Source of the DNA: an uncultured Mycoplasmatota bacterium
GTDB taxonomy: Bacteria; Bacillota_I; Bacilli_A; RF39; UBA660
Assembly (NCBI GenBank): GCA_900547775.1
Contig: URHW01000001.1
Location: 65,762 to 129,761 of the forward strand
Direction: 5' to 3'
DNA: 64,000 nt
Shown here: positions 29,981-55,592 of the stretch, piece after piece
Position numbering within the stretch: position 1 is the stretch's first letter
Layout: each line of letters opens with the position of its first letter
Program-made: the position numbers and the translations under genes
Notes under the pieces: model-generated
The model's database searches: none
Seen by the model: only the letters and a program-made list of their open reading frames with translations
Told to the model about the DNA's origin: nothing

Positions 29981-30383
29981 AGATAGAAGTATATTATTAT
30001 TTATTATTTGTTTAGTAGAGATTGCTTTTTGTTTCTGGGTGCTTATTTATTTTAATCATTTAGATCATCTGACTTATCAGCAGTCAAAAACTGATACGGC
30101 ATCTTTGGCATTACTTGTTCAGAATATGTTTACAAGTACTTGGTGGGGGCTTATTATTTTAACTTTTGCTTTAATATGTATATTTAGTTTAACTGCTTTT
30201 ATTTATAGGGATTTAAAATTTCAGTTTTTAAGTATTTGCTTATATGTTGTTTTGTTTATGTTATCTCTTAATTTTGAAGATACTTTTATGAATAATTTTA
30301 GTAATTTTTTAATTTTTGTACCTCTTGTTGTAGTTAATATAGTTGCATATTTTAAGCAGAAAAAAATAAGCCATGCGGCTTAA
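29958..30383 (+). CDS. Membrane protein, unknown function
   Basis: Four hydrophobic helices. Confidence 0.4.
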   Translation: MFMNKIFKDRSILLFIICLVEIAFCFWVLIYFNHLDHLTYQQSKTDTASLALLVQNMFTSTWWGLIILTFALICIFSLTAFIYRDLKFQFLSICLYVVLFMLSLNFEDTFMNNFSNFLIFVPLVVVNIVAYFKQKKISHAA

Positions 30384-30661
30384 ATATATTCTTCAATTTT
30401 AGTAAATTCACTACTTGATAGTAGTGTTTTTATTTTCTCTTTGTTGTGATATAGTTTTAGTTTTTCTTCGTAATAGTCTAGTTTTTCTTTAACTTCTTTT
30501 AAGGTTTTACTTACAGCGTTTTTGGATACTTTGTAGTTTTCAGCAATTTCTTCTTGGGTTAGGTTGTTAAAATAGTAATCAATAAAGTAGTCTTTCTTTG
30601 TTTTTGTAAATAAATCTTTGTAGTAGTCAAATAGACATGTATAGTATAATAAGTCTTCCAT
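30380..30661 (-). CDS. ylxM: YlxM/UPF0122 helix-turn-helix protein (SRP-operon associated)
   Basis: LFDYYKDLFT...YFIDYYFNNLTQEEIAENYKVSKNAVSKTLKEVKEKLDYYEEKL matches the YlxM pattern. Immediately downstream of ftsY, as in Bacillus. Confidence 0.6.
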   Translation of the reverse strand: MEDLLYYTCLFDYYKDLFTKTKKDYFIDYYFNNLTQEEIAENYKVSKNAVSKTLKEVKEKLDYYEEKLKLYHNKEKIKTLLSSSEFTKIEEYI

Positions 30662-31635
30662 TACATCATATCCTTAAATAGCCCGTAGATATATTCTTCT
30701 ATATCGAATGGTTTTAGATCATTTATCTGCTCGCCAAGGCCAATGTATTTTACTGGAAGAGATGTTTCTTCTTTGATTGCAAGAACGATTCCACCTTTGG
30801 CTGTGCCATCCATTTTGGTTAAAACTATACCAGTTATGTTAGTGATTTCTTTAAAGCTTTTGGCTTGACTGATTCCGTTTTGACCGGTTGTAGCGTCAAT
30901 TATTAGAAGTGTTTCATGAGGAGCACCAGGAATAAGTTTACCAATTACTTTATTTATTTTTTCTAGTTCTTTCATTAAACCTATTTTATTTTGAAGTCTA
31001 CCAGCGGTATCTATAAGGATAATGTCAGCATTTTCTTCTTTGGCTTTTTCTAGTCCATCATAGATGACACTTGCTGGGTCAGCATTTTCTTTACCAACGA
31101 ATAGTGAGTTTGTTCTATCTGCCCATTCTTTTAACTGCTCTACAGCACCTGCTCTAAAGGTATCTGCTGCAACTAGCAAGACTTTTTTATTTTGGTTGTT
31201 AAAGAGGTTTGCAAGTTTACCAATTGTGGTAGTTTTACCTACTCCATTAACACCAACCATTAGAATTACAGTTGGGCCATCTGTTTGGATATTTATTTTA
31301 TCTGTTAGAAAGTCTTCTTTAACGTAAATCATGAATAGTTCATCAACGATGACTTCTTTTAGTTCTTCTGTACTTGTGATATTTTCACTTTTAACACGTT
31401 TTTTTAGTTTGTCAGTAAAGTCCATGACTGTTTTAATGCCGATGTCTGCTTTGATTAAAATATTTTCTAATTCGTCAAAATATTCGTCTGTTACTTTAGT
31501 GTATTTGTGTCCAAGAATAGATAAACTGCTTATAAATTCAGTTCTACTTTTTTCTAGACCTTTATCGTATGTTTCACGATTATCGTTAGTTTCTTTTCCT
31601 TTAAAGATTTCTTTAAATTTGTTAAATAATCCCAT
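30661..31635 (-). CDS. ftsY: Signal recognition particle receptor
   Basis: GVNGVGKTTTIGKLA P-loop, DTAGR, and TKMDGTAKGG (SRP GTPase). Confidence 0.85.
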   Translation of the reverse strand: MGLFNKFKEIFKGKETNDNRETYDKGLEKSRTEFISSLSILGHKYTKVTDEYFDELENILIKADIGIKTVMDFTDKLKKRVKSENITSTEELKEVIVDELFMIYVKEDFLTDKINIQTDGPTVILMVGVNGVGKTTTIGKLANLFNNQNKKVLLVAADTFRAGAVEQLKEWADRTNSLFVGKENADPASVIYDGLEKAKEENADIILIDTAGRLQNKIGLMKELEKINKVIGKLIPGAPHETLLIIDATTGQNGISQAKSFKEITNITGIVLTKMDGTAKGGIVLAIKEETSLPVKYIGLGEQINDLKPFDIEEYIYGLFKDMM

Positions 31636-31639: not shown

Positions 31640-32059
31640 TCACCTACATTCTATATTGCTTCCATCTGCTTCGGGATTGGCGTTATTTATTTTTAGGGTT
31701 ACTGTACCAGAGCACTGCTCATCGTAGTCAGTTAAGTAGTTGTATTTTTTTAGAATATCCATTGATACTTCGATGCCACCTTTTAAGGCATTTCTTGTGC
31801 TTAGACAGTAAGATTCACCTTGAGTTTCAGTTAAGATGTTTTCCGTTTTTAAGATGTTTAGAGCTTCACTATCACATGTGTTTAAGTCTGTTATAAGTAG
31901 TAAAGCACTTTCTTCAGCGTTTTTGATATTCATTTTTCTTAGGGCATCTTTGGAATTTGATAGTTGTTTAGTTACTGCTGGTATTACTATAACCATGATG
32001 ATTCCTAAAACAGCAATTACAGAGATGAGTTCTACTAAGGTAAATCCTTTTTGTTTCAT
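31640..32059 (-). CDS. Type IV pilin / ComGC-like pseudopilin (orphan)
   Basis: Internal start MKQKGFTLVELISVIAVLGIIMVIVIPAV is a class III prepilin signal (G/FTLVE). AGGAGG lies 5 nt upstream (revcomp of 32060-32075). Two C-terminal Cys pairs. No stop codon separates it from queH upstream. Confidence 0.65.
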   Translation of the reverse strand: MKQKGFTLVELISVIAVLGIIMVIVIPAVTKQLSNSKDALRKMNIKNAEESALLLITDLNTCDSEALNILKTENILTETQGESYCLSTRNALKGGIEVSMDILKKYNYLTDYDEQCSGTVTLKINNANPEADGSNIECR

Positions 32060-32641
32060 ACGTTCCTCCTTACTATATATACAGCCACAATAGTCTTGTC
32101 TATATAGATTATATTTTTTAGATAGTTCAATGCTTCTTTTATAGCCTTCTTCTTTTTTGAAGTCTGCTGGCAAAAAGTTAATACCTTCTTTTTCGGCTTC
32201 TTTAAAACCAATTTTGTTGATAAGTTCACTGTTTTTATGAGGACTTACAGTTAATGTTGTACCGAAGTAATCAAAGTTATTTTCTTTAGCAAGTTTGGCG
32301 GTTTTAGATAATCTTAGCATAAAGCATAGGGTACATCTTGCCCCACCTTCTTTTTCTTCCTCGGTTCCTTTGATTTTTTCGTGATAGATATCATTATCAT
32401 AATCACAGTCCATGTATTTAATATTTAACTCTTTAAGAAGTCTTATTTGTTCAGATTTTCTTTTTTCGTATTCTTCTTTTGGTTCAATGTTTGGATTATA
32501 ATATAGGACAGTTATATCAAAATATGATTTTAATCTTTCAATAACACTTGATGAACATGGCCCACAGCAACTATGCAAGAGGATTGTTTTTTTATTATCA
32601 AATGTTTTTATTATTTTTTTCATTTCTTCATTGTAGTTCAT
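32060..32641 (-). CDS. queH: Epoxyqueuosine reductase QueH (DUF208), read through into the pilin gene
   Basis: LLHSCCGPCSS, CTLCF and a C-terminal DYCGCIYS. The ORF continues in frame ...SKEER-MKQKGFTLVE with no stop (ORF track 31640..32641). Confidence 0.65.
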
Positions 32642-32643: not shown

Positions 32644-33357
32644 TTACTCCTCATAAAGTGTTAATACATATCTTTCATAGTTACCACTATCTAGGTTTAG
32701 GACACCTTTTTTATCTTTAAGACTTGCATATATTTGATTATAATAAGATAAGACGTTACATTTTTTGACGTTTATGTAGACAGTATTTCCGTCTTTCATT
32801 TTTAGTTTGAATCTGGTACTATCTATTGTTTCGCCTGTTTCATTTTTACTTGGTGAATATTCGATTTCACTGATGTCAGCGATAATATCTTCGTCTAGTT
32901 TGCCCAATTCTTCGGCAAAGTTTTTTAAAACGTCTTCTGGGGTGTAATTATTTAACTGAGGCACTCCTAGAAAGTTCTTATCATTTATATAGGTTCCATT
33001 TGATAGAAGATAACTTTGATTGGTTAAGTTATATGCGACTACTTTTTCTTCAGTAACATTGATTGTTATTTGAAATTTGAAATTTTTCTTAATTTGTACA
33101 TCTTTTATAAACGGATTTTGTTTTAAGGTTTTAGTAATTTTTGATTTGTTGATGCTTATAAATGATGGATAGTTTTTAAGGTTTGCTGCTTCGATTATTT
33201 CGTAGTCTTTTACTTCTTTGTTTCCAGTTATGATTATATTTTTAACTGGTCTTTTTAAAAGGTAATATGTTCCATTTATGACTAGATAAACTAGTAAAAT
33301 GAGAATTAAAAATTTTTTAAAATTAAATTTTCTTTTAACTACCTTTTTAGTTTTCAT
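32644..33357 (-). CDS. Cell division protein DivIB/FtsQ
   Basis: N-terminal TM and POTRA-like region, C-terminal beta domain. Sits between murG and the SRP genes. Confidence 0.6.
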   Translation of the reverse strand: MKTKKVVKRKFNFKKFLILILLVYLVINGTYYLLKRPVKNIIITGNKEVKDYEIIEAANLKNYPSFISINKSKITKTLKQNPFIKDVQIKKNFKFQITINVTEEKVVAYNLTNQSYLLSNGTYINDKNFLGVPQLNNYTPEDVLKNFAEELGKLDEDIIADISEIEYSPSKNETGETIDSTRFKLKMKDGNTVYINVKKCNVLSYYNQIYASLKDKKGVLNLDSGNYERYVLTLYEE

Positions 33358-40908: not shown

Positions 40909-43245
40909 TTAATCATTAAAGAAATCGTCATAATATTGATCATCTGTCGTTTCATCACTTACAACGATACTATCATTGTCGATATTAACAACCGGTTCTT
41001 CCTTTTCTGAAGTATCATATGTTGTTCCTAAATCAAAGCGTTCTATTTCTGGTTCTTCTTTCTTTGGCTTAGTTTGTTGCTCAATAGTTGGTTGTTTAAT
41101 ACTTTCTTCTTTTTGTGCGGACTTTTGAGCCTCTTCTTCTTTTTCTAATTCCGCTATTTTAGCATCTATTCTCTTTACTAAGTCATCAACATCAAATTTA
41201 GGTGTCGCTGGCTTTTCTTCTGGCTTGGATAAGTTTTCTTCAAATGATGGATATTTGCTGAAATCAAAAGTTGAATTATTTTCTTTTACTGGTTTTTCCT
41301 CAACTGCTGGTTCTTCCTTAGATTTTTCCACTTCGTTTTCAATAAATGATTTTTCAAATTTTGAATTTGAGGTTTTAATATCTTTGGGAGTAGTTTCTGC
41401 TGTATTAAATGGATTGAACCCTTTACTTGCAAATTTGTTTTCTTCTTTGATTTCTTCTTTTTCTTTTTCGAGTTCAGGAACTGGTGTTGGAGTTGTTGGA
41501 GCTTTTTTATCAAGCGCATCAAATAATTTATTACGTTTTTTTACTTTAACAAATTCTTTGATATCAAATAAATCAATTGGTCTTTTCTCTCTTTCGACAA
41601 GTACTCCGTTACCATAGTTTGCTGATCCCCAGTCGATTTCGAAACTTGGTGTAAGTTTAGTTCTGAATGGATTTAATCTTGACCTTAAGATGATAACTTC
41701 AAATAGTTTTAATTTTTGAAGATCACTTACTGTAATAAGTGGTGTTGATGCTGTTTTATCTTTATCTTTTGATTTTACTTCTCCACATAATTTACTTATT
41801 TCTTCTAATGCTGCTAATTCGGTTGTAATTAGATAGATAATATTACCACAGTTACTTCTAATTGTTTCTGCCTGTTCTTTTCCATATACGTCATTTAATT
41901 GAGCAAAGTTTTGAATGATAAATGTGAAACGGATTGCTCTACTACGAGCCGCAGTTACCATTGTTGTTACATCTTTTAGTGGCGGCATGTTAGCAAATTC
42001 ATCTAGAATAAAGTTTGTACGATGTGGTAGTTTTCCTTTTGGACTATTTTGAGCTACATCAATTAATGTTTCATATGCTTGTTTTAGGAAGATTGTAGCT
42101 AGAGCATGGTATGTTGTTTTTTCGTCATGAATAATCATGAATACTGCTGTTTTTTGCTTACCAATGTCTTCCATGTTGAAGTCACTATACGAAAGCATTT
42201 CACTTAATTGTTCACGTGAAGCGAATAGTCTTATTTTTTGTCTGAATACAGATAAAATACTTCCTTTTGTTTCGTTTGGCGCATTTATTGTGTTAGATGC
42301 AAATACGTATGGACTTGAGTCTTCGCCTTTTAAAAGAAAATATTCTTTTGTATAGTTACTTGTGGCAAAGTTTTCTTCCCCTACTGTTGACATGTAGTTT
42401 ATTGAGTTTAAGTTGATTTGTGATTCTTTAGCGTCTTCGAATAGGCCTAGAGCTAGACCTGAGAAGAAGTCTGCAGCACTTTTTTCCCAGAATGGGTCAT
42501 TTTTATTTTCGGGATCATAAAGAATATTTAAAGCAACATCATCTAGTAATTCGGTTGCTTTATCAGTGTTTCCTTCTTGATATAATTTATAAGGAAGTGT
42601 AAGTGGATTCCACGCGTTACCCATGTTCGGATTACGGAAGTTAAGAACGATTATTTTGTAACCTCTTTGTCTTAACATTTCTGAGTGATCTCTGTAAAGT
42701 TCACCTTTAGGGTCAGTTAGAATCATACTCTCGCCTTTACGAGCAAGGCTTTGAACTTGTGGGTCAACCAAGCATTTAGTTTTACCTGAACCGGTTGCTC
42801 CGATTACTAAATTGTGGTAGTCTCCATTATCTACCCACATATTTTTACCATCATTTATTAATGGTATACCGGCGGCTTTTGCTTCTTGTTCCTTAATTAC
42901 AATTTTTTCAACGCCAGCGTCTTTTTTTATTTCGCTTGCTTTGGCCCATCTACTATATCCTTTTTCATCTTTTTCGCCTATTTTTAAGCCAATTCCCTTA
43001 CCTTTTTCTCTTTCAAAAATATAAGATGATACACTATAGAAGATAGACACAAGTACAGCGGCAAAGACAATTAAAGTTGCTGCTATATAATCTTTGGTAA
43101 ATCCCATAAAAAAATTTAAGCCATAAAATTCAGTTGAAGTAAGTAAACTTGTTACATTAAGCACTGCTAAAGATGATAGAATTAGTAATGCTATGCAGAA
43201 TATTATAAATATAATTAAATCTTTTGCAGATACTCTAAATCTCAT
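40909..43245 (-). CDS. Type IV coupling protein (VirD4/TraG/PcfC-like ATPase)
   Basis: Two N-terminal TM helices, Walker A LVIGATGSGKTK, ILTDPKGELY, FILDEFANMPPL, and SRAIRFTFIIQNFAQL. About 230-aa Lys/Glu-rich C-terminal tail ending DDFFND. Confidence 0.8.
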   Translation of the reverse strand: MRFRVSAKDLIIFIIFCIALLILSSLAVLNVTSLLTSTEFYGLNFFMGFTKDYIAATLIVFAAVLVSIFYSVSSYIFEREKGKGIGLKIGEKDEKGYSRWAKASEIKKDAGVEKIVIKEQEAKAAGIPLINDGKNMWVDNGDYHNLVIGATGSGKTKCLVDPQVQSLARKGESMILTDPKGELYRDHSEMLRQRGYKIIVLNFRNPNMGNAWNPLTLPYKLYQEGNTDKATELLDDVALNILYDPENKNDPFWEKSAADFFSGLALGLFEDAKESQINLNSINYMSTVGEENFATSNYTKEYFLLKGEDSSPYVFASNTINAPNETKGSILSVFRQKIRLFASREQLSEMLSYSDFNMEDIGKQKTAVFMIIHDEKTTYHALATIFLKQAYETLIDVAQNSPKGKLPHRTNFILDEFANMPPLKDVTTMVTAARSRAIRFTFIIQNFAQLNDVYGKEQAETIRSNCGNIIYLITTELAALEEISKLCGEVKSKDKDKTASTPLITVSDLQKLKLFEVIILRSRLNPFRTKLTPSFEIDWGSANYGNGVLVEREKRPIDLFDIKEFVKVKKRNKLFDALDKKAPTTPTPVPELEKEKEEIKEENKFASKGFNPFNTAETTPKDIKTSNSKFEKSFIENEVEKSKEEPAVEEKPVKENNSTFDFSKYPSFEENLSKPEEKPATPKFDVDDLVKRIDAKIAELEKEEEAQKSAQKEESIKQPTIEQQTKPKKEEPEIERFDLGTTYDTSEKEEPVVNIDNDSIVVSDETTDDQYYDDFFND

Positions 43246-43297
43246 TTAAGTCACTCCTCATTTTTTATTATATCTTAATTTTAAATTATTTTCCAGA

Positions 43298-43984
43298 TTA
43301 TTTACCAGTATTTTTTGTCTTTATTGCAATATAGGTAGTAAAGCTTATTATAATGATACCAATGATAATAAATATTATGTTATAATTAAATTTTTCTTCT
43401 TCAGTTTCGCTATGTTTTTCGTTTTTGTTATAGTTAAGATATATTTCTTTTTTATTATAGTTATCTTTAGTTAAATTCCAAGTGTATATATTATTATTAA
43501 CGCCATCAGCATTATGTTTGGTTACTTTATTGTTTATAGTTATATTTATAGTTAGTTTATCTAAATCTGGATAGTTATCAAATATGTTTTCCTTTTTGCC
43601 TAGATTTAGGCTTATTATGTTGCCGGTCTCATTTAGTTTAAAGTTAGGAAAGTGTTCTTTGACTAGTGTTGATGTTAGATATTCTTCTTTAGTGAGATTG
43701 GCTTTATAACGAGCCCCTAATTCGTTATCTGTGTCTATTTTTGATATCTGATAATATTTTAAATTATTTTGCTTGAAATTAACTTCTGGCTTGTAGTAGT
43801 TATCATCTACTGGTATTTTTGATTTTAAGGCAACATTTACTGTTTTTTGAGATTTACTACTTTTATCGTTAGTTGTTAGGACAAGTTCTTCAGTGAATGT
43901 ATTATTATTTATGTCTAGATTATAGACGGCTTCACATCCAGTTAGTGATATCATTAGAATTAATAATATTAGTATTTTTTTCAT
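43298..43984 (-). CDS. Lipoprotein with C-terminal TM helix
   Basis: Start at MKKILILLILMISLTGC (lipobox LTGC) with GGAGGATAAT immediately upstream. C-terminal IIFIIIGIIIISFTTYIAI anchor. Confidence 0.5.
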   Translation of the reverse strand: MKKILILLILMISLTGCEAVYNLDINNNTFTEELVLTTNDKSSKSQKTVNVALKSKIPVDDNYYKPEVNFKQNNLKYYQISKIDTDNELGARYKANLTKEEYLTSTLVKEHFPNFKLNETGNIISLNLGKKENIFDNYPDLDKLTINITINNKVTKHNADGVNNNIYTWNLTKDNYNKKEIYLNYNKNEKHSETEEEKFNYNIIFIIIGIIIISFTTYIAIKTKNTGK

Positions 43985-43985
43985 A

Positions 43986-45788
43986 TTATCCTCCACAGTG
44001 ATTTGCGTAGTATGCACTCATTGAGACGCCAGTATAGTATGCTGATTGGTCATATCCATAGGTTCTATATTGAACTCCGCCTCCAGTGGATTCGGCAGTT
44101 TTAAGTTGTGAACCAGTATTTTCTAGTACTAGGATGACATGGCCAGAGTTTGCGATAACATCTCCTGGAGATAGTTTGCTGAATGGAATGTGATCTCCAA
44201 GTGATAGGAATCCAGCAGCGGTATATGTTCCAGTTATATTTGCGGCATGCATTGCCCATGAAACGAAACCAGAGCAATCTAGTCCCTTGTAGTAGTCATA
44301 ACTACCGTTAGGTTTTTGAATACTTGCACCAATATTTGCACCCCACTGTCTATCAACAATAGGATTTTTTGCTACATGTCCTCCGCCATAGTAATATGGT
44401 AGGTGAAAACCTTTAGCATGAAGGCCATCGATAAGAGCAATTGCGGCTCTAGCCACTGATGCTCCACTACATCCACTACCAACTGCTGAGCGTATTTTGT
44501 TTTCGAGTTCAATTACGCCTGCTTCACCTATTGCTTCAACAAGGCTAGTACCTTTTAGCTCAGTACTATCAGTATTAGGTGGATATCCATAATCTGATGA
44601 AGCACCTGGTATTGTGTTTTTACTTAGTATATAGTTTATAACAATTTCGTGGATTTTTTTGTAAGTTTCTACATTGTAATGAAGGCCATCTACTGTTTCG
44701 AAATTATCTTTTATTTGTGAGTAAACGTCGATAAAGTTTTCGCCAAAGCCATTTTTCATAACTGTATTAAAGCCTTCAATATTTGCATTAGTTACTGAGT
44801 ATCCATTTTCTGTTTCTTTTGCTTCATCAACGGGATTGACACTCATTACATAGACACTTACTTCAGAATATTTATTTTTTAATTCTTGATATTTTGCAAG
44901 GTAGTTTGAACTATTTGACAAATCATTAACGCCAAATGCAAGAACGATAAATTTTTTACCTTCTATTTTAGTTTCTAACTCTGGTATCGCACTATCTACA
45001 AACCATGAATATCCAGCACCGTTTTGGGCGATACTACTGATGCTTTTGTTAGTAATACTGCTCATCATACCTACTATACGAGAGTCACCCATGTATATAA
45101 GAAGGTTTTCGGCTTCTGCTGCTGTGTATACTGAAGCATTATAGTTTGTATCTGAGTTGTATCCGACATCTCCTCCTTTACTTGTTAAATCAAGCATTGC
45201 TCCTGAGTTTGGCCCCATTATAATTAATAATATCATTACAAAGAAAAAGAAAAGACAAGCAGAGGCTATACCGATAATTAAAAATTTGTTTTTGAGTTTC
45301 TTTTTGGGAAATAGTGAAGTTGTTCCACTTCCTTTTGCGTTGTTGGAACCATTGTTATTGTTTGTGGCTTTTTCAGCGGCTGATACTGCTTTTTGAGCTT
45401 GTTCTGTTTTATCTATTGAGGTGGCTGCTCCAACGGCATCACTTACACCACTTTCATTTATTCGATTTGAAGCTTCTTGGATTTTATTTCCTAGGGGAAT
45501 TCTTTTGTTAATGTCATTTAGTGCTTTACCTACAATTTGACTAGATTTTCCACCAGTAAGTTTGTCGGCGCCTTTAACGATTGCTCCAGCTGCTACGGCA
45601 TGGGGAATTTTAGTTTTCATTGCAACATTGGCAGCATTACGAAGATTATTAGCATTATTTTCAATGTTTCTGGCATCTTCATTCTGCTCTATTTGCTTAT
45701 TATCTTCTGGACTTGAATCATTTTGTGTTTGTGCATTATCTTCCGGCATTAAACCATTAGACTTTGCTTTGTAAGTTTCATCATCCAT
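43986..45788 (-). CDS. Membrane-anchored cell-wall hydrolase: SGNH/GDSL esterase domain plus NlpC/P60 endopeptidase domain
   Basis: Hydrophilic N-tail, TM FLIIGIASACLFFFFVMILLIIM, SGNH blocks (GDSRIVG, FGVNDL, DGLHYN), and C-terminal NlpC/P60 (YYKGLDCSGFVSWAMH...GHVILV). Confidence 0.6.
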   Translation of the reverse strand: MDDETYKAKSNGLMPEDNAQTQNDSSPEDNKQIEQNEDARNIENNANNLRNAANVAMKTKIPHAVAAGAIVKGADKLTGGKSSQIVGKALNDINKRIPLGNKIQEASNRINESGVSDAVGAATSIDKTEQAQKAVSAAEKATNNNNGSNNAKGSGTTSLFPKKKLKNKFLIIGIASACLFFFFVMILLIIMGPNSGAMLDLTSKGGDVGYNSDTNYNASVYTAAEAENLLIYMGDSRIVGMMSSITNKSISSIAQNGAGYSWFVDSAIPELETKIEGKKFIVLAFGVNDLSNSSNYLAKYQELKNKYSEVSVYVMSVNPVDEAKETENGYSVTNANIEGFNTVMKNGFGENFIDVYSQIKDNFETVDGLHYNVETYKKIHEIVINYILSKNTIPGASSDYGYPPNTDSTELKGTSLVEAIGEAGVIELENKIRSAVGSGCSGASVARAAIALIDGLHAKGFHLPYYYGGGHVAKNPIVDRQWGANIGASIQKPNGSYDYYKGLDCSGFVSWAMHAANITGTYTAAGFLSLGDHIPFSKLSPGDVIANSGHVILVLENTGSQLKTAESTGGGVQYRTYGYDQSAYYTGVSMSAYYANHCGG

Positions 45789-45809
45789 AAAGGCACCTTC
45801 CTTTCTTTT

Positions 45810-46298
45810 TTATTTTTCGATTGTGTAACTATCTAAGTATACGGTATAATTCATAATACTTTTTTCTTTAAATATGAATGTATTGTTATCGCCATCTATA
45901 ATATAAAATAGTTTATAATTTGTTTTATCTACTACTGTGTATGAAACAACTTTTGCACTTAAAAATTTAGTTGAGTAAATGTTTTTTAAGGCATTTTCAA
46001 AGTCAGTATATGTTTGAAGTTTTTGTGATTTGTAGTAATCATCTATCTTGGCGTATGCTGCTTCTTTGTCATTTATTGTTAAATTTACAAAATCTGCAAG
46101 GTATTTTTTTGCCATATCTTGTTCAGTTACGTATGTGTATGTTACTTCATTGACTTCGTAGTTGTGAAGATATTGATAGTTGTCTATAGTATTATCTTCT
46201 TGTTCTTTTTTATTATATATAACGGAGAAAATAATAGCTCCTATAACTATTATAACGCATATTATTATTGATATTTTATCTGAATCTAGTTTTCTCAT
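45810..46298 (-). CDS. Bitopic membrane protein, candidate VirB8-like (PrgL/TcpC-type) component
   Basis: N-terminal TM plus an extracytoplasmic domain of about 130 aa, placed after the hydrolase as PrgL is in pCF10. The fold cannot be verified from sequence. Confidence 0.3.
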   Translation of the reverse strand: MRKLDSDKISIIICVIIVIGAIIFSVIYNKKEQEDNTIDNYQYLHNYEVNEVTYTYVTEQDMAKKYLADFVNLTINDKEAAYAKIDDYYKSQKLQTYTDFENALKNIYSTKFLSAKVVSYTVVDKTNYKLFYIIDGDNNTFIFKEKSIMNYTVYLDSYTIEK

Positions 46299-46300
46299 AG

Positions 46301-46804
46301 TTATTCCTCCTTAAAGATCTTTCCATCGTATGGAGTTATATCAAATAATTTTTGAGAGTTATCAATTGTAACAATTAGGTAGTAATCTCCTGCTTTAGAA
46401 CTTCCATCAATTGAATCTTCATATAATACACCTTTTATGTAATATTTATTTACTTTTTTACTTAACTTTTCTTCATACATTTTAGTTGCACTAAATGTTA
46501 AATTTTTCCCAGAAAAGTTATCCAATTTTGTTAGAATATTTTCTTCAGTAATTTTATTTTTACTTGTGTATGATTCATTAAGTACTTTAATAAGGGCTTC
46601 TTTGTTTTCGCTCGTTAAGTAGTTAATGTATTTTGTAGCACATCCGTTTGCAGTAAAGAAATCGGAGTAGTTTTCTACTAAATTAATAGATGATGAATTA
46701 GGGTTATCGTTAGAAGAATCGTTTTTTAATACTTTATTTATAATTACAGCACCAAGAATTGTAACTACTCCTATTATAATTATTATATATGTTTTCTTAT
46801 CCAT
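46301..46804 (-). CDS. Bitopic membrane protein, second candidate VirB8-like component
   Basis: Same architecture as the previous ORF (N-terminal TM plus about 140-aa domain). Confidence 0.3.
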   Translation of the reverse strand: MDKKTYIIIIIGVVTILGAVIINKVLKNDSSNDNPNSSSINLVENYSDFFTANGCATKYINYLTSENKEALIKVLNESYTSKNKITEENILTKLDNFSGKNLTFSATKMYEEKLSKKVNKYYIKGVLYEDSIDGSSKAGDYYLIVTIDNSQKLFDITPYDGKIFKEE

Positions 46805-46818
46805 TAATAATCTCCTTA

Positions 46819-48900
46819 CTAATATCCATGAACGAATATTTTACATTCTTTTTGACGTCTATTTCTTAGTCCTTGCTCAAATTGAGTTCCAGGCATGACA
46901 GCTGTTTCATTCCACCAATTTGTACATAACGCGTCAGTTGATCCATACGATGCATAGGCTTCGAAGAAACCATTTATATTTCCATGATTATATTTTAGAG
47001 ATGTTAAGGCGTCTAATTGATTATCATTTAAAGTTAATCCATTACTTGCACATAGTGCTTTTACTGATTCTCTATCTTGGTTAAGCCGGTCAGCAAAGAT
47101 TTGATCAACAACTGATTTATTCATAGTTGTTCCACAGTAATTCATATAATTATTTGTAGTTGTTAGGTTAATACCATATCTTTGAAATAGAACTACATTA
47201 TTTGCTAGAGTGATACCATGACCTACTGTTGGAATATCACCAGAGTTACAGTAGACTGTATAAGTATCTCCTGATCCTACGCTTCCTTCTAACATTTCGA
47301 TAAGTTCTACTAAGTTTGATGACGCAGATGAGGCTGGTCTAGGATTTTTTTGATCTACATAGTTTAAGGGATCTACTCTTGTTGATATATCAGTTCTTAC
47401 TTCAAAATGTAAGTGTGTTCCTGTAGAACGACCTGATGAACCTACTTTAGCGATTACTTGTCCTTGACGTACTGAATCATTTACTTTTACATTAATTGTT
47501 CCTTCATGAAGGTGGGCATATAGTGTGTACATTCCATCAGAGTGACTTATCATAATGTAGTTTCCGTAACCTCCACCGCAATTTTTATCACCAAATGATA
47601 CGCAGTTATTGATTACTTTGGTTACAATACCATCTTTAGAAGCAATGACGTTTACTACGCCAGCACTTCCTCCTGGAGCAATGTCGATTCCTGTATGTCC
47701 GCTGTTTGCTGCTCCAGTTATCGGGTCTACTCTAAGTCCAAACATACTTGTTATTGTAGTTGGTACAGGTTCCCCTGTAGCATATGTTATTCCGCCTTCT
47801 TCAGTTGTTTCTGCTGATCCAATTGGCCACCAAAATGCATTTGGATTTCCTGCACTAGTGTAATTTACAATATTATCTTCTTGTCCATAATTATTTAGTA
47901 AGTCTTTAATCATTTCAACTATTTTTTTTCTAGCTTCGGTGATATCATCGATATTGGCTTCTTTTTCAGCCTCGGTAAGTTCAGTATTTCTTTTTTTACC
48001 TGTTTTTTCTAATATTTTGGTGTAGTAGTTGCTTAAGTGAGGCTTTTTATCAAAGTAGTTTCCTTTTATTAAAAACTCCCAATATTTACTTTCTGCTACT
48101 TCTTGAGCATTGTTAACTTTATAGTCGTAGCCTGAGTAACCACCGCTTGCGGCTTCATTTTTACATTCATCTTCAGCCTCAGATTTTATTCCAAAGAATG
48201 ATAATACACCACTATTTGCAAGAACTTTTTCCCAGAAACCAACGAAATCTTGTTTAATAAGGTCCTTGCATACACCATTTTCTAGAATAGCCATGCTACC
48301 TACGCATTCGGTAGTTGTTGTACCATCTTCATTTTGGATTGTTGTTGGCGCATATGTTCCATAACATTGTGAACGATATCCTAACATTGATTTTATTAAA
48401 AGTTTAATGCTATCAGATTCGTTTTCCCAATATGATGCATCATATTCTTTGTCAATATCATAATCAGTATCTGATTCATCTCCTGTATAAGGATTACTTG
48501 ATGATCCAGTTACTTCCTTATAATATTCTCCTGAATCGGCAAATAAGTCTGGATCTAGTTCAAAAAATGCAGTCATGATAATTATTTTATCATCAATAAA
48601 CAATCCTCTTGCTTGATATTTTGCGAGTAATTTATATAGCCTTGTGTAGAAAACTCTTTGACTTGCAATTATTCTTTCTTTACATTTATCTATTTCCGGT
48701 TGATTGTCATAGTCTTCACTACATAAAAATGTCCAATAGCCTAAATTTTCTTCTGCAAATTTGTCAAAATCAAAATCTGCATATTTGAAACTTGCTGCTT
48801 TCGTTATGTTTGGACTAAGGAAAAAAACTATTAAAAAGAAAGGTATTAGTAAAATACCTATTTTTAATAGTTTATTAGTTAAATGTTTAAAATTAAACAT
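46819..48900 (-). CDS. Secretion-associated peptidoglycan hydrolase: M23 peptidase plus GH24 phage-type lysozyme domains (VirB1/PrgK/CwlT analogue)
   Basis: Signal-anchor N-terminus. M23 motifs GHTGIDIA and GSSGRSTGTHLHFEV. GH24 motifs LEG..D..T, DALTSLKYNHGN and FEQGLRNRRQKECKIF. Confidence 0.75.
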   Translation of the reverse strand: MFNFKHLTNKLLKIGILLIPFFLIVFFLSPNITKAASFKYADFDFDKFAEENLGYWTFLCSEDYDNQPEIDKCKERIIASQRVFYTRLYKLLAKYQARGLFIDDKIIIMTAFFELDPDLFADSGEYYKEVTGSSSNPYTGDESDTDYDIDKEYDASYWENESDSIKLLIKSMLGYRSQCYGTYAPTTIQNEDGTTTTECVGSMAILENGVCKDLIKQDFVGFWEKVLANSGVLSFFGIKSEAEDECKNEAASGGYSGYDYKVNNAQEVAESKYWEFLIKGNYFDKKPHLSNYYTKILEKTGKKRNTELTEAEKEANIDDITEARKKIVEMIKDLLNNYGQEDNIVNYTSAGNPNAFWWPIGSAETTEEGGITYATGEPVPTTITSMFGLRVDPITGAANSGHTGIDIAPGGSAGVVNVIASKDGIVTKVINNCVSFGDKNCGGGYGNYIMISHSDGMYTLYAHLHEGTINVKVNDSVRQGQVIAKVGSSGRSTGTHLHFEVRTDISTRVDPLNYVDQKNPRPASSASSNLVELIEMLEGSVGSGDTYTVYCNSGDIPTVGHGITLANNVVLFQRYGINLTTTNNYMNYCGTTMNKSVVDQIFADRLNQDRESVKALCASNGLTLNDNQLDALTSLKYNHGNINGFFEAYASYGSTDALCTNWWNETAVMPGTQFEQGLRNRRQKECKIFVHGY

Positions 48901-48918
48901 ATTATCACCGCCTAATTA

Positions 48919-50709
48919 TTATAGTCCTCCACCTGAGCCAAATGAATCTAGTTCATCTTGAGTTAGAACTACATTTATTCTCATACGTCTGTTACCGCAG
49001 ACAAATAAAGCCTCACCTTGACTATATGTCTTAATGCTTTCTTTCTCATTGTCGTTTAAGTCAATTAATCTTGATAAGTCTTCAACTGCTTGTTTTTTTA
49101 ATCCCATTACTAAGTAATATGCGGCATTATCAAAGATTGCTTTACCATGAACAAAAATATTTTCAGCAGCAAAGTCTGTTGGTTGCTGTGTAATGATAAT
49201 TGTTCCAGTATTGTATTTACGACTACGTCTTTGAATTTGTGCAAGGAACTCGGCACCTAATTCATTTTTGCTTGATAATAGAACATGAGCTTCATCTACA
49301 AACATAACTGTATTTGTAGATTTATCTAAACATAATCCCCATGCATATTTTAGGATATTGAAGAACAAAGCATTTCGAATATTTTCATCACTATTCATTA
49401 GTTCTTTAATATTAAATACGATGAAATCACTCTTAGTTTCAATCGTAGTGTGACCGTTAAAATAGAACCTTAATTCTTTTACGAATGGTCTAATTCTTAG
49501 TTCTAGACGCTCCATGACATCTTTTTCTCTAGTTGCTTCTGGCATTGATAAAAGTTTACCTTTTATGGTTGCATAGACATCATCAAAGATTGGAAAGTCT
49601 TTAGATGTAAATTTACTAAAGTCTGTATTAAAGTCAATGCCAAATCTTTTATAAGTATCTTGAACTACTTCACTAAACATTGCTAGAACGTCTTCTTCAA
49701 TAGATGGATAGTAGTATTTCATGAAGGCTTTTAGTGATTGTAAGGTTCTTGTTAGAACTGTATATCCTAATCCTTCTTTAATCTCATCTTCATCAGCATC
49801 AAAGATTACTTCCAGTGGGTTTACCATACCAAATGCTCCACCACGGCCTAAGTCAATGAAGTCTCCACCAAAATTGTGAGTCATTTCACTTAATTCACCT
49901 TCTGGGTCGATTGCTACTATTTTACATCCGTTTCTGATGTGAGTTCTAAGCATTAATTTAGCAGCTGTAGATTTACCACTACCTGATGTACCCAAAATAA
50001 TCATGTTAGCATTATTTCGATTAAATTCTTTTTTTGTTTGATATAAAAATTGGTTAAATAAAACTACACCGCCAGAGAAATCAACACCTAATAATGTGCT
50101 TGATCCTGGATCTTTAATGCTATCAAATACGAATGGATACATTGCTGCTATTGTTGGACTTGGTATAGGGATACCTACTCTTTGCTCAACATCTTGTTTT
50201 GGGAATATTGGAATCATAGATTTTAAGACTTTTTCTTGTTCAAACATCATTGGGATTCCTCTCATACCCATCGCGTCAAGATAATTTCTAACTTGCATCT
50301 TTTTATTTTCTAATTCTTCTTTAGTATCAGCAGTTAACATGATATGCATTTGAAAGTCGAATATTTTTGATTGAGTTGCTGCTAGCATTTGGACAAATGA
50401 TTCTAAAGATTCATAGTCTTGACGAATTCTTTCTTGAAGAGTTCTTTCATTTTCATGTTGATAACGTTCTTTTAAGTCAGCAATTTCTTTATTAATCATA
50501 CGACTCATTGTTGAAAAGTCGATCGGAATATGTTTAATTACTACTTTTACTCCTGGTAAGTTAGTAACGTTTGCTAGAAACCCTGGCCCGATTATTTTAG
50601 GATAACTTATGATAGTTAATATTGTTGCATATTTATCGCTAATCATAAATTCATTTACGTCGAATTTCATACCTTTAGGAGCTATTTCACTTTTAAATGT
50701 ATTAGACAT
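48919..50709 (-). CDS. VirB4/PrgJ/TrsE-like ATPase, C-terminal 596-aa part
   Basis: Walker A ILGTSGSGKST, VAIDPEGELS, Walker B VMFVDEAHVL, and arginine-finger region QIQRRSRKYNTGTIIITQQ. Confidence 0.8.
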   Translation of the reverse strand: MSNTFKSEIAPKGMKFDVNEFMISDKYATILTIISYPKIIGPGFLANVTNLPGVKVVIKHIPIDFSTMSRMINKEIADLKERYQHENERTLQERIRQDYESLESFVQMLAATQSKIFDFQMHIMLTADTKEELENKKMQVRNYLDAMGMRGIPMMFEQEKVLKSMIPIFPKQDVEQRVGIPIPSPTIAAMYPFVFDSIKDPGSSTLLGVDFSGGVVLFNQFLYQTKKEFNRNNANMIILGTSGSGKSTAAKLMLRTHIRNGCKIVAIDPEGELSEMTHNFGGDFIDLGRGGAFGMVNPLEVIFDADEDEIKEGLGYTVLTRTLQSLKAFMKYYYPSIEEDVLAMFSEVVQDTYKRFGIDFNTDFSKFTSKDFPIFDDVYATIKGKLLSMPEATREKDVMERLELRIRPFVKELRFYFNGHTTIETKSDFIVFNIKELMNSDENIRNALFFNILKYAWGLCLDKSTNTVMFVDEAHVLLSSKNELGAEFLAQIQRRSRKYNTGTIIITQQPTDFAAENIFVHGKAIFDNAAYYLVMGLKKQAVEDLSRLIDLNDNEKESIKTYSQGEALFVCGNRRMRINVVLTQDELDSFGSGGGL

Positions 50710-51259
50710 TACTCATCACCGTCCCATACTCATTTTTTGCTCCCCCATTAAGGAAGTTCTGAAGCAAAAATTTTAAGTCTTCATCACTTGCTTGTCTTGA
50801 ATTTAGTCCACAACCGGCTAAGTTTGCAATCATGGTTTGAATTCTTTTTTGAACTACTTCTAATTTTTTATCTCTGAACAAGAAGAAATATTCTGTATCA
50901 ACTGCATTAACACTGCTGCCGCCAAACATCTCGGCTTTTTGAATATCCTGATTAATTAATTTTCTTACGGCTTGATTTTGCGCATTGTCATATTGAAGTT
51001 GTAGTTGTGATAAGTATAGTTTTATATCTACTGGTCTATCTGCAACTACTAGCCAAAATTCGTAGTCAAGTGTGTTATAAAAGTTCCTTAAGTTAAAGAT
51101 AATATTATTTTGTGTTTGATAATCTAATATGAAAATATTTTTGGGTTCAACTTTAATTCCTGTTACATAATAATTATTATTTAAGATAATCATTCCGTTT
51201 TGAATTGCTTTAACAGGTACCCAATCTTCAGAAAATTTACTTGTCTTCTGTTTTGCCAT
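50702..51259 (-). CDS. VirB4 N-terminal domain as a separate 185-aa ORF
   Basis: FYNTLDYEFWLVVADRPVD and upstream IILNNNYYVTGIKVEP match the CagE/TrbE/VirB4 N-terminal region. 8-nt overlap (ATGTCTAA) with the ATPase ORF. MSN occurs at both ends of the junction. Confidence 0.55.
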   Translation of the reverse strand: MAKQKTSKFSEDWVPVKAIQNGMIILNNNYYVTGIKVEPKNIFILDYQTQNNIIFNLRNFYNTLDYEFWLVVADRPVDIKLYLSQLQLQYDNAQNQAVRKLINQDIQKAEMFGGSSVNAVDTEYFFLFRDKKLEVVQKRIQTMIANLAGCGLNSRQASDEDLKFLLQNFLNGGAKNEYGTVMSNV

Positions 51260-51560
51260 AGCTATTACACCAACCTTTCCAATAATAAACTCGATTATTT
51301 GTATAATATGTGAATACGTTTTTGATAAACGTTCTAACGTTATGCTGATTTGGCAGAGGAACTATTAAGAACGTGCATACAAGAGCTGGAGTTAATATTA
51401 AGAATGCCGTTTTCATATCATTAGTTTGAATTGATAGCATAAGTACAAAACTTACTACTACTCCAGTTATGAAGATTATCAAATCCGTTGTATTGAATAG
51501 GCCCAATATCAGCATAGATTTTTTTGAGTTTGCTGGTATCAAGTAATTATTGTTTCCCAC
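51237..51560 (-). CDS. PrgI/VirB3-like small membrane protein
   Basis: 107 aa, two TM helices (MLILGLFNTTDLIIFITGVVVSFVL; AFLILTPALVCTFLIV), C-terminal NVFTYYTNNRVYYWKG. Sits directly upstream of VirB4. Confidence 0.5.
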   Translation of the reverse strand: MGNNNYLIPANSKKSMLILGLFNTTDLIIFITGVVVSFVLMLSIQTNDMKTAFLILTPALVCTFLIVPLPNQHNVRTFIKNVFTYYTNNRVYYWKGWCNSYGKTEDK

Positions 51561-51574
51561 TTTTTATTCCTCCT

Positions 51575-52006
51575 TTATTTAATTCCAAATGAACCTAGAA
51601 GTGCTTTGCATCTATCAAGTGCTTTTCCTGAAAATAGATAATTTACAAAGTACTCAGTATTTGTATATCTGTCATCCTGATGTACTATTAGTCCTGCTTT
51701 TTTAGAAAATGAAGAATTAGTTCTAAGTGTTTTGTTAAGTTCTTTAACACATGCTCTGTATAAACTGGGATTTTCTTTCATAACTCTGTCTAAAAGACCT
51801 ACCATCTGTGTATAATAATATGTATCAATTTCTTTTAATGTTTTAAATCTTCTAAAGTTTCCAGAGTAAAATTCTTCCTTTTCATTTTCCCAAGCACTTT
51901 TTATTATGCTTTCTTCTCCTGATTGCGTGCTTAGTAATAATTCATATTGGGTACGATATTCTGTACATAATTTGCTTATAATTTTTGCATCAATTTTGTC
52001 TATCAT
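51575..52006 (-). CDS. Cytoplasmic hypothetical protein within the secretion operon
   Basis: 143 aa, no TM. Start ATG shares one nt with the upstream stop (TAATG). Confidence 0.35.
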   Translation of the reverse strand: MIDKIDAKIISKLCTEYRTQYELLLSTQSGEESIIKSAWENEKEEFYSGNFRRFKTLKEIDTYYYTQMVGLLDRVMKENPSLYRACVKELNKTLRTNSSFSKKAGLIVHQDDRYTNTEYFVNYLFSGKALDRCKALLGSFGIK

Positions 52007-54147
52007 TATTTACCATCCTTCTTTGCTTGTTCTGATGCTAAACTAGATTGACTCTTCGCAATTGAGTTATTAAGTGCCGTTTCTAAATCCTCATATTGTT
52101 TTGCAAATTGTGCATAATTAATGTTTTCGGACTTAGCTTGAGTTACTAAGTCATTTACCATGCCAGAAAGTTTATCTCTTTGTTCTGGGTCATCTATTGT
52201 AAATGCAACCTGTTCAAATTGTTTTGAAAGTGTTTGTGCATAATTGATGCATCCATCTTGTCCAAGTTTTTCTAAACTCTTTGCTTGTTCTGCTGATAAT
52301 AAATCTTTGTAAACGGCCTTAATTGTTTTTTCTCTATCGTTTGCTGTACCAAAATTGTATGTCTTGTCACCTACTGTAATTGAGTTTCCACTTTGTACTA
52401 CACGTTTTCCAGAGACACTTGCTAGTCTGCTTGCTAATTCAGCACTAGTTAGTTTACCTTGATATGAATCAGTAATAAGGTCATCTCTACCTTTTTTGAT
52501 GTTATTATATGAGCCTTTATTAGCAACGTTTTTCAAGAATGAACCAACTGTATTTTTTAGTTTTGTTTGATTATCTACAGAACGTTGTAATACTGAATTG
52601 CTTCCATCAGTAAGGTAGTCTGCAAATGTTGAAGCTGCATCCGCGATATTATCTGTCATACGGTCAAATACTGTAGAGTATTCTTTTGCTTTTTCTGCAA
52701 CTGCTTTTTTAATTTGCTCTTCACTCCACTCTGGATGTAATGTACGTAAAGTGTTTGTGTATTCTTCACCATGTTCCTCAATCCACTTATTTTCAAGTTG
52801 TCTATTATGTGCTTCTCTATCATCTCTATGCTCATCAGCGGTTGAACGCGCTCCGACAATTGTATCTTTTACTTTGGTAATATCATTAAGGCCTCTACTT
52901 TGAACCCATCCTTGACGACCGCCACCGATAAGTCCTCCAAAACCAGTTTTAATAACTTGACCAACGCTTTTTCCAGCACCAATTCCTTTTATTACATTTC
53001 CAACTGCTGTTGTTCCTGCAGCACCTAACACAGATGCACCACGTAATGCGTATTCATTTTCATTAAGTTTTTTCTTGATGGACATTTGAGGTATTTTAAC
53101 GCTGAAGATTTCTTCGAGAAGTTTCGGAGCATCTTTAGCAAATTTTAAGATTCCTAGAATTACTACTACTGTAGCAATAACATTAATAAAAAGTCCTCCA
53201 CCACTTGCAAAGATATTTATATCTGACACAAACGATATTAATAACATCGCAAAGTTTATTATGACTATTCTTTCAAAAACCTGGAGATATGTTTTAGTAA
53301 ATTCACTGAACCATTTGTCAAACTGACCACCTTTTGGCTTCGTTATCCTTAAAAATATTGGAATTGGAGCGATTAACTTTAAAGCGCCTAGTTTTGCTGC
53401 TCTAACGCCCAAATCAAGTGAAAATGATAAGAATAAATATGCTGCAACTACTCCGGCAATCGTGCTTAATGGAAATAAATATTCCATATCATCATCATAT
53501 ATTCCATCTTTTAGGTCTTCATCATGCATGAAGTTCCAAAGACCACCTATACCATTTTTAGCATTATCGGCCATTTCTTTGTATCTTGAACATAACTTGA
53601 CGGATGAGCTCTCACATTCGGTTAGCGTAACCGGCTCTTTGTTTTCATCTATCGGATGGTAAAATGCCGTAAAGATTGTTACCGAAACATTTAGAGCACC
53701 TTTCGTTTGTCCATTTTCACCAGAATCACTTGCGGTTGAACCCATGATAAGATTACCAATTGTGTTGTTTTCTATTATATGATTTTGAAATATTTGCATG
53801 TATTCACATATTAATGGAAATAAGGTAACTAAAACAATTGAAATTATTGTATTTTGAACAATATTTTTTACTGATTTTTCTCCTTTGCTCAATGAGTCAG
53901 GGTCAACGATTGCCAAGATTATATTATATGCAAAAACGAATAGCATGACTATTCCGATTATTGTATAAATCCTTCTGGATATTACACCAACATTTTCTGT
54001 TGAAAATACTTCTACTTTACTTACTACTTCAAATAGTTGATAACATATATTAATTGCTAAATAGATTACATAGTCAATTGTAAGAAGAATTCCATAAAAG
54101 GCATTTGATACCCAATTTCCAATTATACTTCCTGTGAGTGTTCCCAT
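52006..54147 (-). CDS. VirB6-like polytopic membrane protein (TrbL/PrgH/TcpH/ConG-type) with long hydrophilic C-terminal extension
   Basis: Start at MGTLTGS with AGGAGG 7 nt upstream. About 7 TM helices in the first 400 aa, a Gly-rich segment, then a roughly 300-aa charged C-terminal domain. Confidence 0.5.
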   Translation of the reverse strand: MGTLTGSIIGNWVSNAFYGILLTIDYVIYLAINICYQLFEVVSKVEVFSTENVGVISRRIYTIIGIVMLFVFAYNIILAIVDPDSLSKGEKSVKNIVQNTIISIVLVTLFPLICEYMQIFQNHIIENNTIGNLIMGSTASDSGENGQTKGALNVSVTIFTAFYHPIDENKEPVTLTECESSSVKLCSRYKEMADNAKNGIGGLWNFMHDEDLKDGIYDDDMEYLFPLSTIAGVVAAYLFLSFSLDLGVRAAKLGALKLIAPIPIFLRITKPKGGQFDKWFSEFTKTYLQVFERIVIINFAMLLISFVSDINIFASGGGLFINVIATVVVILGILKFAKDAPKLLEEIFSVKIPQMSIKKKLNENEYALRGASVLGAAGTTAVGNVIKGIGAGKSVGQVIKTGFGGLIGGGRQGWVQSRGLNDITKVKDTIVGARSTADEHRDDREAHNRQLENKWIEEHGEEYTNTLRTLHPEWSEEQIKKAVAEKAKEYSTVFDRMTDNIADAASTFADYLTDGSNSVLQRSVDNQTKLKNTVGSFLKNVANKGSYNNIKKGRDDLITDSYQGKLTSAELASRLASVSGKRVVQSGNSITVGDKTYNFGTANDREKTIKAVYKDLLSAEQAKSLEKLGQDGCINYAQTLSKQFEQVAFTIDDPEQRDKLSGMVNDLVTQAKSENINYAQFAKQYEDLETALNNSIAKSQSSLASEQAKKDGK

Positions 54148-54158
54148 TGTTTTTCCTC

Positions 54159-54506: not shown

Positions 54507-54574
54507 ATTAATCAAACCTCTATATATACAACATAATTTTAATATAAAATCAATCATATTGCAAGGAAAATGCT

Positions 54575-55483: not shown

Positions 55484-55566
55484 GATTTAATTATAACAGA
55501 TTGTAATAGTAAAAGTATTTTTATAGTAAATATTTTACATTTTATTAGTTATTTTTACAAAGAAAA

Positions 55567-55590: not shown

Positions 55591-55592
55591 GA

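Follow-up and report, generated by a model that had tools for sequence, protein, structure and literature searches.

What becomes of a tRNA-modification enzyme when its gene lacks a stop codon and runs in frame into the gene of a pilin? The question is raised by a locus of an uncultured Mycoplasmatota bacterium (RF39, UBA660), in which queH, encoding epoxyqueuosine reductase, and a type IV prepilin gene share one open reading frame (ORF). The locus was analyzed within a stretch of 64,000 nucleotides (contig URHW01000001.1, positions 65,762 to 129,761), called the window below, and was compared with related loci. The arrangement is best read as a tolerated stop-loss fusion, in which the cleavage site of the pilin could well separate the two proteins again. 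It is almost certain that the fusion is a genuine, heritable stop-loss gene fusion, real and selected.

A single reading frame through queH and a prepilin gene

In the ORF listing, positions 31640..32641 of the minus strand hold one uninterrupted ORF of 333 amino acids (aa), and the claim of an earlier note, made from the sequence of the window, that queH runs in frame into the pilin without a stop was confirmed. The junction reads TGT GGC TGT ATA TAT AGT AAG GAG GAA CGT ATG AAA CAA AAA GGA TTT ACC, which is translated as ...CGCIYSKEER-MKQKG-FTLVE. The QueH profile (PF02677) matched aa 20-193 with its entire length (1-175/175, E=2.8e-70, 236.4 bits), and N_methyl (PF07963) matched aa 194-219 of the 333-aa ORF (30.2 bits, cutoff 21.2). 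Since the QueH domain ends at aa 193 and N_methyl starts at aa 194, no linker lies in between. The AGGAGG that had been described 5 nt ahead of the internal ATG sits at 32070..32065, followed by the spacer AACGT (32064..32060) and the pilin ATG (32059..32057). A Shine-Dalgarno (SD) sequence belonging to queH itself, GAGGAG, is located upstream and overlaps the end of divIB. The predicted prepilin-peptidase cleavage falls after G198 (G198/F199), between 32045 and 32044. The parts of the ORF were assigned as follows.

31640..32641, minus strand: QueH-type IV prepilin fusion ORF, with the stop TGA at 31642..31640 and then TAA
32063..32641, minus strand: QueH (epoxyqueuosine reductase) moiety, aa 1-193, with the motifs CCGPC, C103/C106 and C185-G-C187
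32065..32071, minus strand: internal SD sequence AAGGAGG, inside QueH codons K191-E192-E193 and 5 nt upstream of the pilin ATG
32057..32059, minus strand: in-frame ATG (M194), the ancestral pilin start codon, kept in 6/6 fused sequences
32045..32059, minus strand: prepilin leader MKQKG, with N_methyl and TIGR02532 matches
31973..32044, minus strand: hydrophobic alpha1-N segment FTLVELISVIAVLGIIMVIVIPAV with E+5, predicted membrane anchor and pilus assembly interface
31643..31972, minus strand: pilin globular domain, with Cys62/Cys85 and the invariant Cys116/Cys138 (C-terminal disulfide-loop-like); dN/dS 0.05-0.13 within fused clades

The same in-frame junction was found in at least eight other assemblies, namely an independent MEGAHIT contig that is identical base for base at the junction (L003), a metagenome-assembled genome (MAG) from the Hadza gut that serves as a GTDB species representative (L011), and L095-L100, six contigs that stem from different samples. 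A protein of exactly these 333 aa is recorded on 4 contigs, the longest of 582 kb; its 90% cluster contains 1014 member sequences, and fused variants occur each on up to 64 contigs. Pilin-only members of this cluster, of 140 aa, were considered as unfused alleles and rejected, as all of them resulted from 100-N scaffold gaps inside queH or from contig ends, and the junction was in frame in each. A sequencing error, raised in the earlier note as a possible cause, was ruled out by the repeated appearance of the same junction in multiple samples. The probability that a base missed at 32060 conceals a normal stop or overlap is negligible. Such a missed base would fit the nearest unfused relatives, which differ by one base in length just ahead of the ATG, and several low-coverage metagenome contigs of the locus are indeed chimeric (L004, L005, L091); however, the junction recurs in those eight or more assemblies from different assemblers, and the cluster has hundreds of fused members. 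In addition, a species 90% identical in protein (L012) is also fused, with synonymous differences around the junction, and the window pilin has AAA CAA as codons 2-3, so that the old frame would not bring TAA back.

Three contigs were set aside as probable chimeras. P0013, a QueH with another tail, lies on a contig of 0.36x coverage that is probably chimeric with another species. In L004 (1040-1070) the N-terminal half of QueH is joined in frame to the C-terminal half of the pilin, and in L005 (420-500) a foreign signal-peptide ORF is joined in frame to the same half. Both contigs have a coverage of ~1.6-1.7x and were treated as probable chimeras, not as recombination; their joins are probably assembly chimeras at short similar stretches and less likely real deletions. 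An Illumina adapter-like sequence (...CTCTTCCGATCT) is joined directly to queH sequence at L003:1-34.

An alternative genetic code was rejected: the long ORFs of the window have no in-frame TGA and 6/56 end in TGA, so table 11 applies. In the public gene calls P0001, P0008 and P0010, which end in ...ECRW, the stop TGA (31640-31642) is read as Trp (table 4), the MAGs behind these calls presumably being labelled Mollicutes or Tenericutes. Frameshifting to a hidden stop was rejected as well; the +1 frame ends at a TGA overlapping the ATG, but its use would delete the catalytic C-G-C.

Both halves were complete. The QueH half matched the solved QueH structure of T. maritima (7LC5, E=2.4e-31), which aligns through ...YCGCVFS and then has 18 further residues. 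CCGPC, C103/C106 and C185-G-C187 are invariant among the fusions, and in an AlphaFold2 (AF2) model of the fused protein QueH had a predicted local distance difference test (pLDDT) score of 93-98 up to residue 180. Stand-alone QueH proteins of ~190-200 aa in 70+ related genomes carry a tail of 5-19 residues after YCGC; the window ORF continues 146 residues past the CGC motif. The pilin segment is a fusion and not a native QueH extension, the other outcome that the earlier note had foreseen.

In the pilin half, G-1, L+3, E+5, C116 and C138 are invariant across 20 orthologues, and conservation reaches 90% or more at F+1 and T+2. Four Cys were located at pilin positions 62, 85, 116 and 138, in agreement with the two C-terminal Cys pairs noted earlier. 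The generic prepilin cleavage/methylation domain TIGR02532 scored above threshold (27.7 bits, cutoff 16.3), and the class III signal is present as a leader ending in Gly-1, MKQKG, followed by ~21 hydrophobic residues with Glu+5. Counted from the start of the ORF, this motif begins at residue 194 and the leader is 198 aa long; only a start at the internal ATG gives a short N-terminal leader (5 aa). The AF2 model of the pilin, built on a 46-sequence alignment (pLDDT 85.7), has a 53-residue alpha1 helix (pilin residues 8-60) and a small beta-sheet (strands 96-99, 116-125 and 128-138), which gives the lollipop fold. Foldseek against the PDB returned no significant match for the head domain, and a profile search of PDB sequences found type IV pilins through alpha1-N only, including Geobacter PilA-N (3.5e-11), S. 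sanguinis PilE1 (8e-9), MshA, PilA and GspG. The best NCBIfam match by E-value was ComGC (NF040999), with 32.9 bits against a cutoff of 75, and the type II secretion pseudopilin GspG (TIGR01710) reached 32.6 bits against 88.85 over the N-terminal 50 residues only. ComGC is a highly conserved monophyletic group of ~94 aa when processed (PMC7212644), compared with 134 aa for the window pilin. Given this length, the sub-cutoff score and the beta-sheet of the model, the label "ComGC-like" used in the earlier note was dropped; the protein is a genuine type IV pilin, not ComGC.

Origin and recurrence of the fusion

When one genome per species was scanned, 80 loci were returned, and a prepilin gene directly follows queH in 28 of these 80 species representatives, within the string murG-divIB-queH-pilin-ftsY-ylxM. 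The position between queH and ftsY is therefore the conserved home of the pilin and not an unusual one, as had been supposed. The neighbouring genes in the window are as follows.

32644..33357, minus strand: divIB/ftsQ (POTRA_1), directly upstream, with its stop 2 nt before the queH ATG
30661..31635, minus strand: ftsY (receptor for the signal recognition particle, SRP), starting 4 nt after the pilin stop
30380..30661: ylxM, after ftsY, at the end of the conserved gene string

Among the 28 representatives with this adjacency, queH and the pilin gene are separate in 25 and fused in 3. In the commonest unfused layout the pilin ATG precedes the queH stop by 8 nt (ATGAATAA), and the stop is made from pilin codons 2-3. 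Elsewhere the genes overlap by 11, 4 or 23 nt or stand 8-69 nt apart; overlaps of 8 or 11 nt account for most cases. The closest unfused relatives, L001 and L013, whose FtsY is 98% identical to that of the window, read AAG GAG TGG CGT AAT GAA TAA; their QueH ends in ...SKEWRNE* with the stop within ATGAATAA, and the ATG from which the pilin starts lies embedded there. By comparison the window lacks one base (CGTATG in place of CGTAATG), and the ATG thus stands in the queH frame. Relative to these relatives queH has lost its own stop, one of the two possibilities considered in the earlier note. As to its origin, queH and the prepilin gene are ancestral neighbours, usually with the 8-nt overlap and the pilin in the +1 frame, and a length change of 1 nt before the pilin ATG put the genes in frame and removed the queH stop. 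An 8-nt gene overlap is shown here to toggle into a fusion by a single indel.

The relationships of the fused loci were examined with neighbour-joining trees built from MurG and QueH, either alone or together with FtsY. One clade (80% bootstrap) comprised the window, L011 and L012 and had the unfused L001/L013 as its sister (100%), while the fused L015 grouped with the unfused L017/L026 (97%). L006, a fused metagenome locus that was in neither tree, was put with L015 because their junctions match and their sequences are highly similar. A further fused locus, L007, fell beyond a split with 100% support, close to the unfused L028/L030. The three junctions differ in sequence and length (SKEER-MKQKGF; SKGE[SN]-M(KKNDS/QNRNS)GF; SKRSTD-MNKKNGF). 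The in-frame fusion arose at least three times independently; a single gain would call for many reversions and is by far the less parsimonious account.

Selection was estimated as pairwise Nei-Gojobori dN/dS, with values that are partly near saturation. Between the window and L012, dN/dS was 0.042 for queH (dS 0.73) and 0.065 for the pilin (dS 1.28); between L015 and L006 it was 0.079 (dS 0.79) and 0.121 (dS 1.0), respectively. These ratios pointed to strong purifying selection on both halves in two fused clades, so the fused state has outlasted species-level divergence with neither part decaying. No gene of the string evolves faster than the pilin (the window and L001 share 76% identity in it, compared with 98% for FtsY), and exposed pilins usually evolve fast. 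It is very improbable that the fusion is a step in the pseudogenisation of queH, or of an orphan pilin without machinery, or of both. No pilus machinery was seen nearby and the lineage is apparently small-genomed (contigs of relatives ~1.1 Mb), as decay would have it, but with dS at 0.7-1.3 the dN/dS of both halves stayed at 0.04-0.12 in the two fused clades, QueH retains every catalytic Cys motif and the pilin every hallmark, and no frameshifts occurred among the variants inspected.

Several other changes were observed at this locus. The joint of queH and pilin is a small hotspot, as a KilA-N-like ORF is inserted exactly at the pilin start in three species, intact in L023 (3590-4350) and decayed in L025 (3590-3890) and L027 (3590-4350); the remnant ATGAATAAAAAATAA follows queH, and the pilin restarts past the insert with a duplicated SD-ATG junction of ~25 nt. 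L002 (1-1373) carries a pilin-only coding copy (nt 111-516) that is 99.5% identical to L095/L098/L099, has its own AT-rich upstream region, starts with MDKKGF and has, in place of ftsY, a 63-aa ORF and then a Fic-domain gene downstream. It belongs to a cluster of 24 members and may represent a second copy, a capture by a mobile element or a chimera. In the more distant relative L060 (3700-4959), the pilin after queH is 419 aa long, with a class III signal and a long extra C-terminal region, and the locus may thus encode a modular pilin there. In one sub-clade (L028, L030, L033, L037; ~4100-6050) a multi-pass membrane protein of ~645 aa lies between pilin and ftsY.

Fate of the fused polypeptide

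Since the stop is lost, the chimera must be translated, and a strong, conserved internal SD and ATG are present, in support of the proposal that a chimera is made alongside free pilin. The duplex predicted with the anti-SD sequence was -11.1 kcal/mol in the window clade compared with -7.7 in the unfused sister, and GGAG(G) and ATG are kept in 6/6 fused sequences, amid a linker that varies (SKEERMKQKG and SKEARMNQKG; SKGENMQNRNSG and SKGESMKKNDSG). From this, internal initiation is probably still in use and gives free prepilin.

According to the proposed mechanism, every ribosome starting at queH would make the 333-aa QueH-prepilin polypeptide, and free prepilin would very probably still be produced in parallel from the retained SD and ATG. 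QueH would occupy the leader position on the cytoplasmic side, with the alpha1-N helix across the membrane and the globular pilin domain outside. A prepilin peptidase would cut after G198 and yield QueH with a 5-residue tail and a normal mature pilin. With cleavage, the fusion would be nearly neutral and cost almost nothing; such near-neutrality, together with an easy mutation (one indel beside the 8-nt overlap), would explain its recurrence and persistence. Prepilin leaders are 6-26 aa long and do not leave the cytoplasm, whereas SRP/Sec inserts the hydrophobic helix. Processing requires no protein other than the peptidase, with Gly-1 as a critical residue, and in some systems a shortened leader does no harm (PMC4471445). 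As leaders remain cytoplasmic, QueH ahead of the leader would be on the correct side for an enzyme that acts on tRNA. QueH is a cytoplasmic Fe-S enzyme acting on tRNA, and QueH before pilin would be the only workable layout, because the reverse gene order would export QueH. The lowest pLDDT of the fused AF2 model (63) was at residues 191-200, the cleavage site, which suggests a flexible joint there. A peptidase would be expected in this host from the strictly conserved cleavage motif and from the 88.7% of sequenced Bacilli that carry a Com system with prepilin peptidase (PMC7212644).

For the complete explanation, that is, the stop-loss fusion with membrane insertion, cleavage and internal initiation as its predicted steps, we would give a probability of about 0.5. 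Cleavage of the chimera by a prepilin peptidase, judged by itself, has somewhat less than an even chance. A stronger version is held more tentatively still: the prepilin peptidase would serve as a polyprotein-processing protease, with folded QueH as a 198-residue leader, ~eight times longer than any described, freed in active form at G198/F199, in an arrangement with three or more separate origins that selection maintains.

A number of points weigh against this explanation. We know of no case in which a prepilin peptidase accepts a folded 22-kDa domain, and only ~12 flexible residues lie between the C-x-C motif of QueH and the membrane. The SD and ATG double as coding positions, so their retention is suggestive and no proof of internal initiation, and the dN/dS estimates carry the saturation given above. 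A Pfam scan of ~60 ORFs of the 64-kb window returned no T2SSE, T2SSF or Peptidase_A24 match, and the flanks of ~30 related loci contained no gene for a prepilin peptidase, pilus ATPase or platform protein; no second prepilin motif was found within the 64-kb window. The statement that no comG/pil assembly genes lie nearby holds for these ORFs, and the word "orphan" holds only for the window and the flanks of related loci. Two pilin-like matches on long contigs (P0225, P0209) were followed as a lead to pilus machinery and rejected, as they come from unrelated Firmicutes that form spores or bear dockerins. In unrelated Firmicutes, too, short prepilin genes stand alone among housekeeping genes, as in the order mutS-pilin-pilin-gyrB (L092:7583-8399) or beside spoVA genes (L094:8001-8351), so pilin genes distant from pilus machinery are not rare.

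A further objection came from QueH itself, which in public data (P0250-P0276) is fused in frame to PALP/CysK-like proteins, a HemK-like methyltransferase, alanine racemase, the CCA-adding enzyme, a HAD hydrolase, an epimerase and 5-FTHF cyclo-ligase. So many unrelated downstream partners suggest that read-through after loss of the queH stop occurs commonly and is tolerated. QueH is a promiscuous fusion partner, which makes the pilin fusion less surprising. One fusion consists of QueH, a transmembrane (TM) segment and Amidase_3 (P0276); as QueH fusions without a cleavage site exist, cleavage is not needed to explain persistence, and QueH may tolerate C-terminal cargo, even membrane tethering, without it. 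These fusions surfaced in an exhaustive profile search with the fusion alignment, in which no fused QueH-pilin representative was among the matches, because fused proteins are absorbed into clusters with unfused or chimeric representatives.

The chimera could accordingly stay uncleaved, as intact, membrane-tethered QueH with an inert or mildly harmful pilin part; functional pilin would then come only from the internal SD/ATG, and the fusion would persist since QueH tolerates C-terminal cargo. The promiscuity of QueH, extending to the TM segment and Amidase_3, is what keeps this alternative in play, and the retained strong SD and the absence of a peptidase gene from the window and related flanks agree with it. 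We nevertheless regard it as unlikely, at a level that still deserves attention. An unprocessed prepilin cannot assemble and would presumably compete with free prepilin for peptidase and machinery, G-1, F+1 and E+5 are intact in all fused lineages, and a peptidase acting on free prepilin would meet the identical site in the chimera.

Selection for tying QueH to pilin biogenesis is a further alternative, and an improbable one. The benefit could be, for example, a fixed 1:1 co-production, SRP-dependent delivery, or the release of active QueH only after peptidase cleavage. Three independent origins, long persistence under purifying selection, the tight coupling conserved in most unfused relatives (overlaps of 4 to 23 nt) and the SRP receptor gene directly downstream would all suit such a function. 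But the fusion is present in only 3/28 species representatives, and separate genes suffice for the sister species L001/L013. The recurrence of this stop-loss pattern with partners that are unrelated points to neutrality, and the mutation needed is an easy one (one indel beside ATGAATAA). To our knowledge, no functional link between queuosine and pili has been described. The tolerated stop-loss fusion with a predicted cleavage site was retained as the preferred reading.

If the chimera is cleaved, prepilin peptidases would set no upper limit on leader size and would accept a folded domain beside the site, which bears on substrate recognition by these intramembrane aspartyl proteases; the locus would also be a natural "self-separating" fusion design, in which one ORF supplies both an enzyme for the cytoplasm and a protein for export. 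Without cleavage, the chimera would be a natural case of a tRNA-modification enzyme working while membrane-tethered. In either case there is an annotation trap. The 336-aa orthologue in L012 is named by NCBI only "epoxyqueuosine reductase QueH", so annotation hides the pilin of this gut lineage, and pilin surveys demanding an N-terminal signal would miss it.

Surroundings and comparison with known systems

Farther along the window, the minus strand of 40909-57064 holds a Gram-positive conjugative type IV secretion region that is unrelated to the type IV pilin and is probably an integrated conjugative element. Its features are listed here.

40909-43245, minus strand: VirD4/TraG coupling protein
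43986-45788, minus strand: NlpC/P60
46819-48900, minus strand: M23 peptidase and lysozyme
48919-50709, minus strand: VirB4-like ATPase
54159-54557 and 55593-55919, minus strand: two T4SS_pilin-like proteins
54575-55483, minus strand: C39-like peptidase

Adjoining this region, at 58250-63635 on the minus strand, are two large proteins (378 and 1181 aa) that contain cadherin-like beta-sandwich domains and are possibly surface adhesins.

Compared with ComGC, the major competence pilin, the window pilin is likewise a short prepilin from a Bacilli-class organism, but it has four Cys and modelled beta-strands, and its neighbours are divIB/queH and ftsY with no comG operon. It resembles type IV pilins such as Streptococcus sanguinis PilE1 in the Gly-ended leader, F+1, E+5, the hydrophobic alpha1-N of ~21 residues and the lollipop model with a C-terminal Cys pair. 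It differs from them in that the class III signal is internal, behind a complete 193-aa enzyme, so that the "leader" from the ORF start has 198 aa against the 6-26 aa described (PMC4471445), in a head domain without a detectable solved relative, and in a gene position within a cell-division/SRP string and not a pil or com operon. Modular pilins, such as PilB and PilC of S. sanguinis, comprise >1,200 proteins in 264 architectures, and the survey of them demanded an N-terminal IPR012902 with the extra modules C-terminal (PMC8179133). The likeness lies in a pilin module attached to a domain that is not pilus-specific. However, the extra module of modular pilins is C-terminal, exported and displayed on the filament (PMC8179133), whereas QueH lies N-terminal to the class III signal and its cleavage site, is cytoplasmic, and would be removed and not displayed. 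Because that survey required an N-terminal signal (PMC8179133), the QueH-pilin architecture falls outside it. A literature search gave no paper linking QueH and pilins and none describing unusually long prepilin leaders.

On the side of the enzyme, the unfused relatives show the classic overlap of translationally coupled genes (ATGA or ATGAATAA). The window QueH agrees with the DUF208 family (PF02677; the non-B12 epoxyqueuosine reductase of 7LC5) over its full length and in all Cys motifs; orthologues stop 5-19 residues after C-G-C, whereas the window has no stop there and 140 further residues. It shares the stop-loss pattern with the fusions of QueH to PALP, methyltransferase, alanine racemase, CCA-adding enzyme, HAD and TM-amidase proteins. 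Unlike these, the pilin partner brings a protease site of its own precisely where the two proteins meet, and fusion with this same partner has recurred three times. The parts are ordinary and no new kind of system is involved; the architecture in which QueH and a pilin are combined is new.

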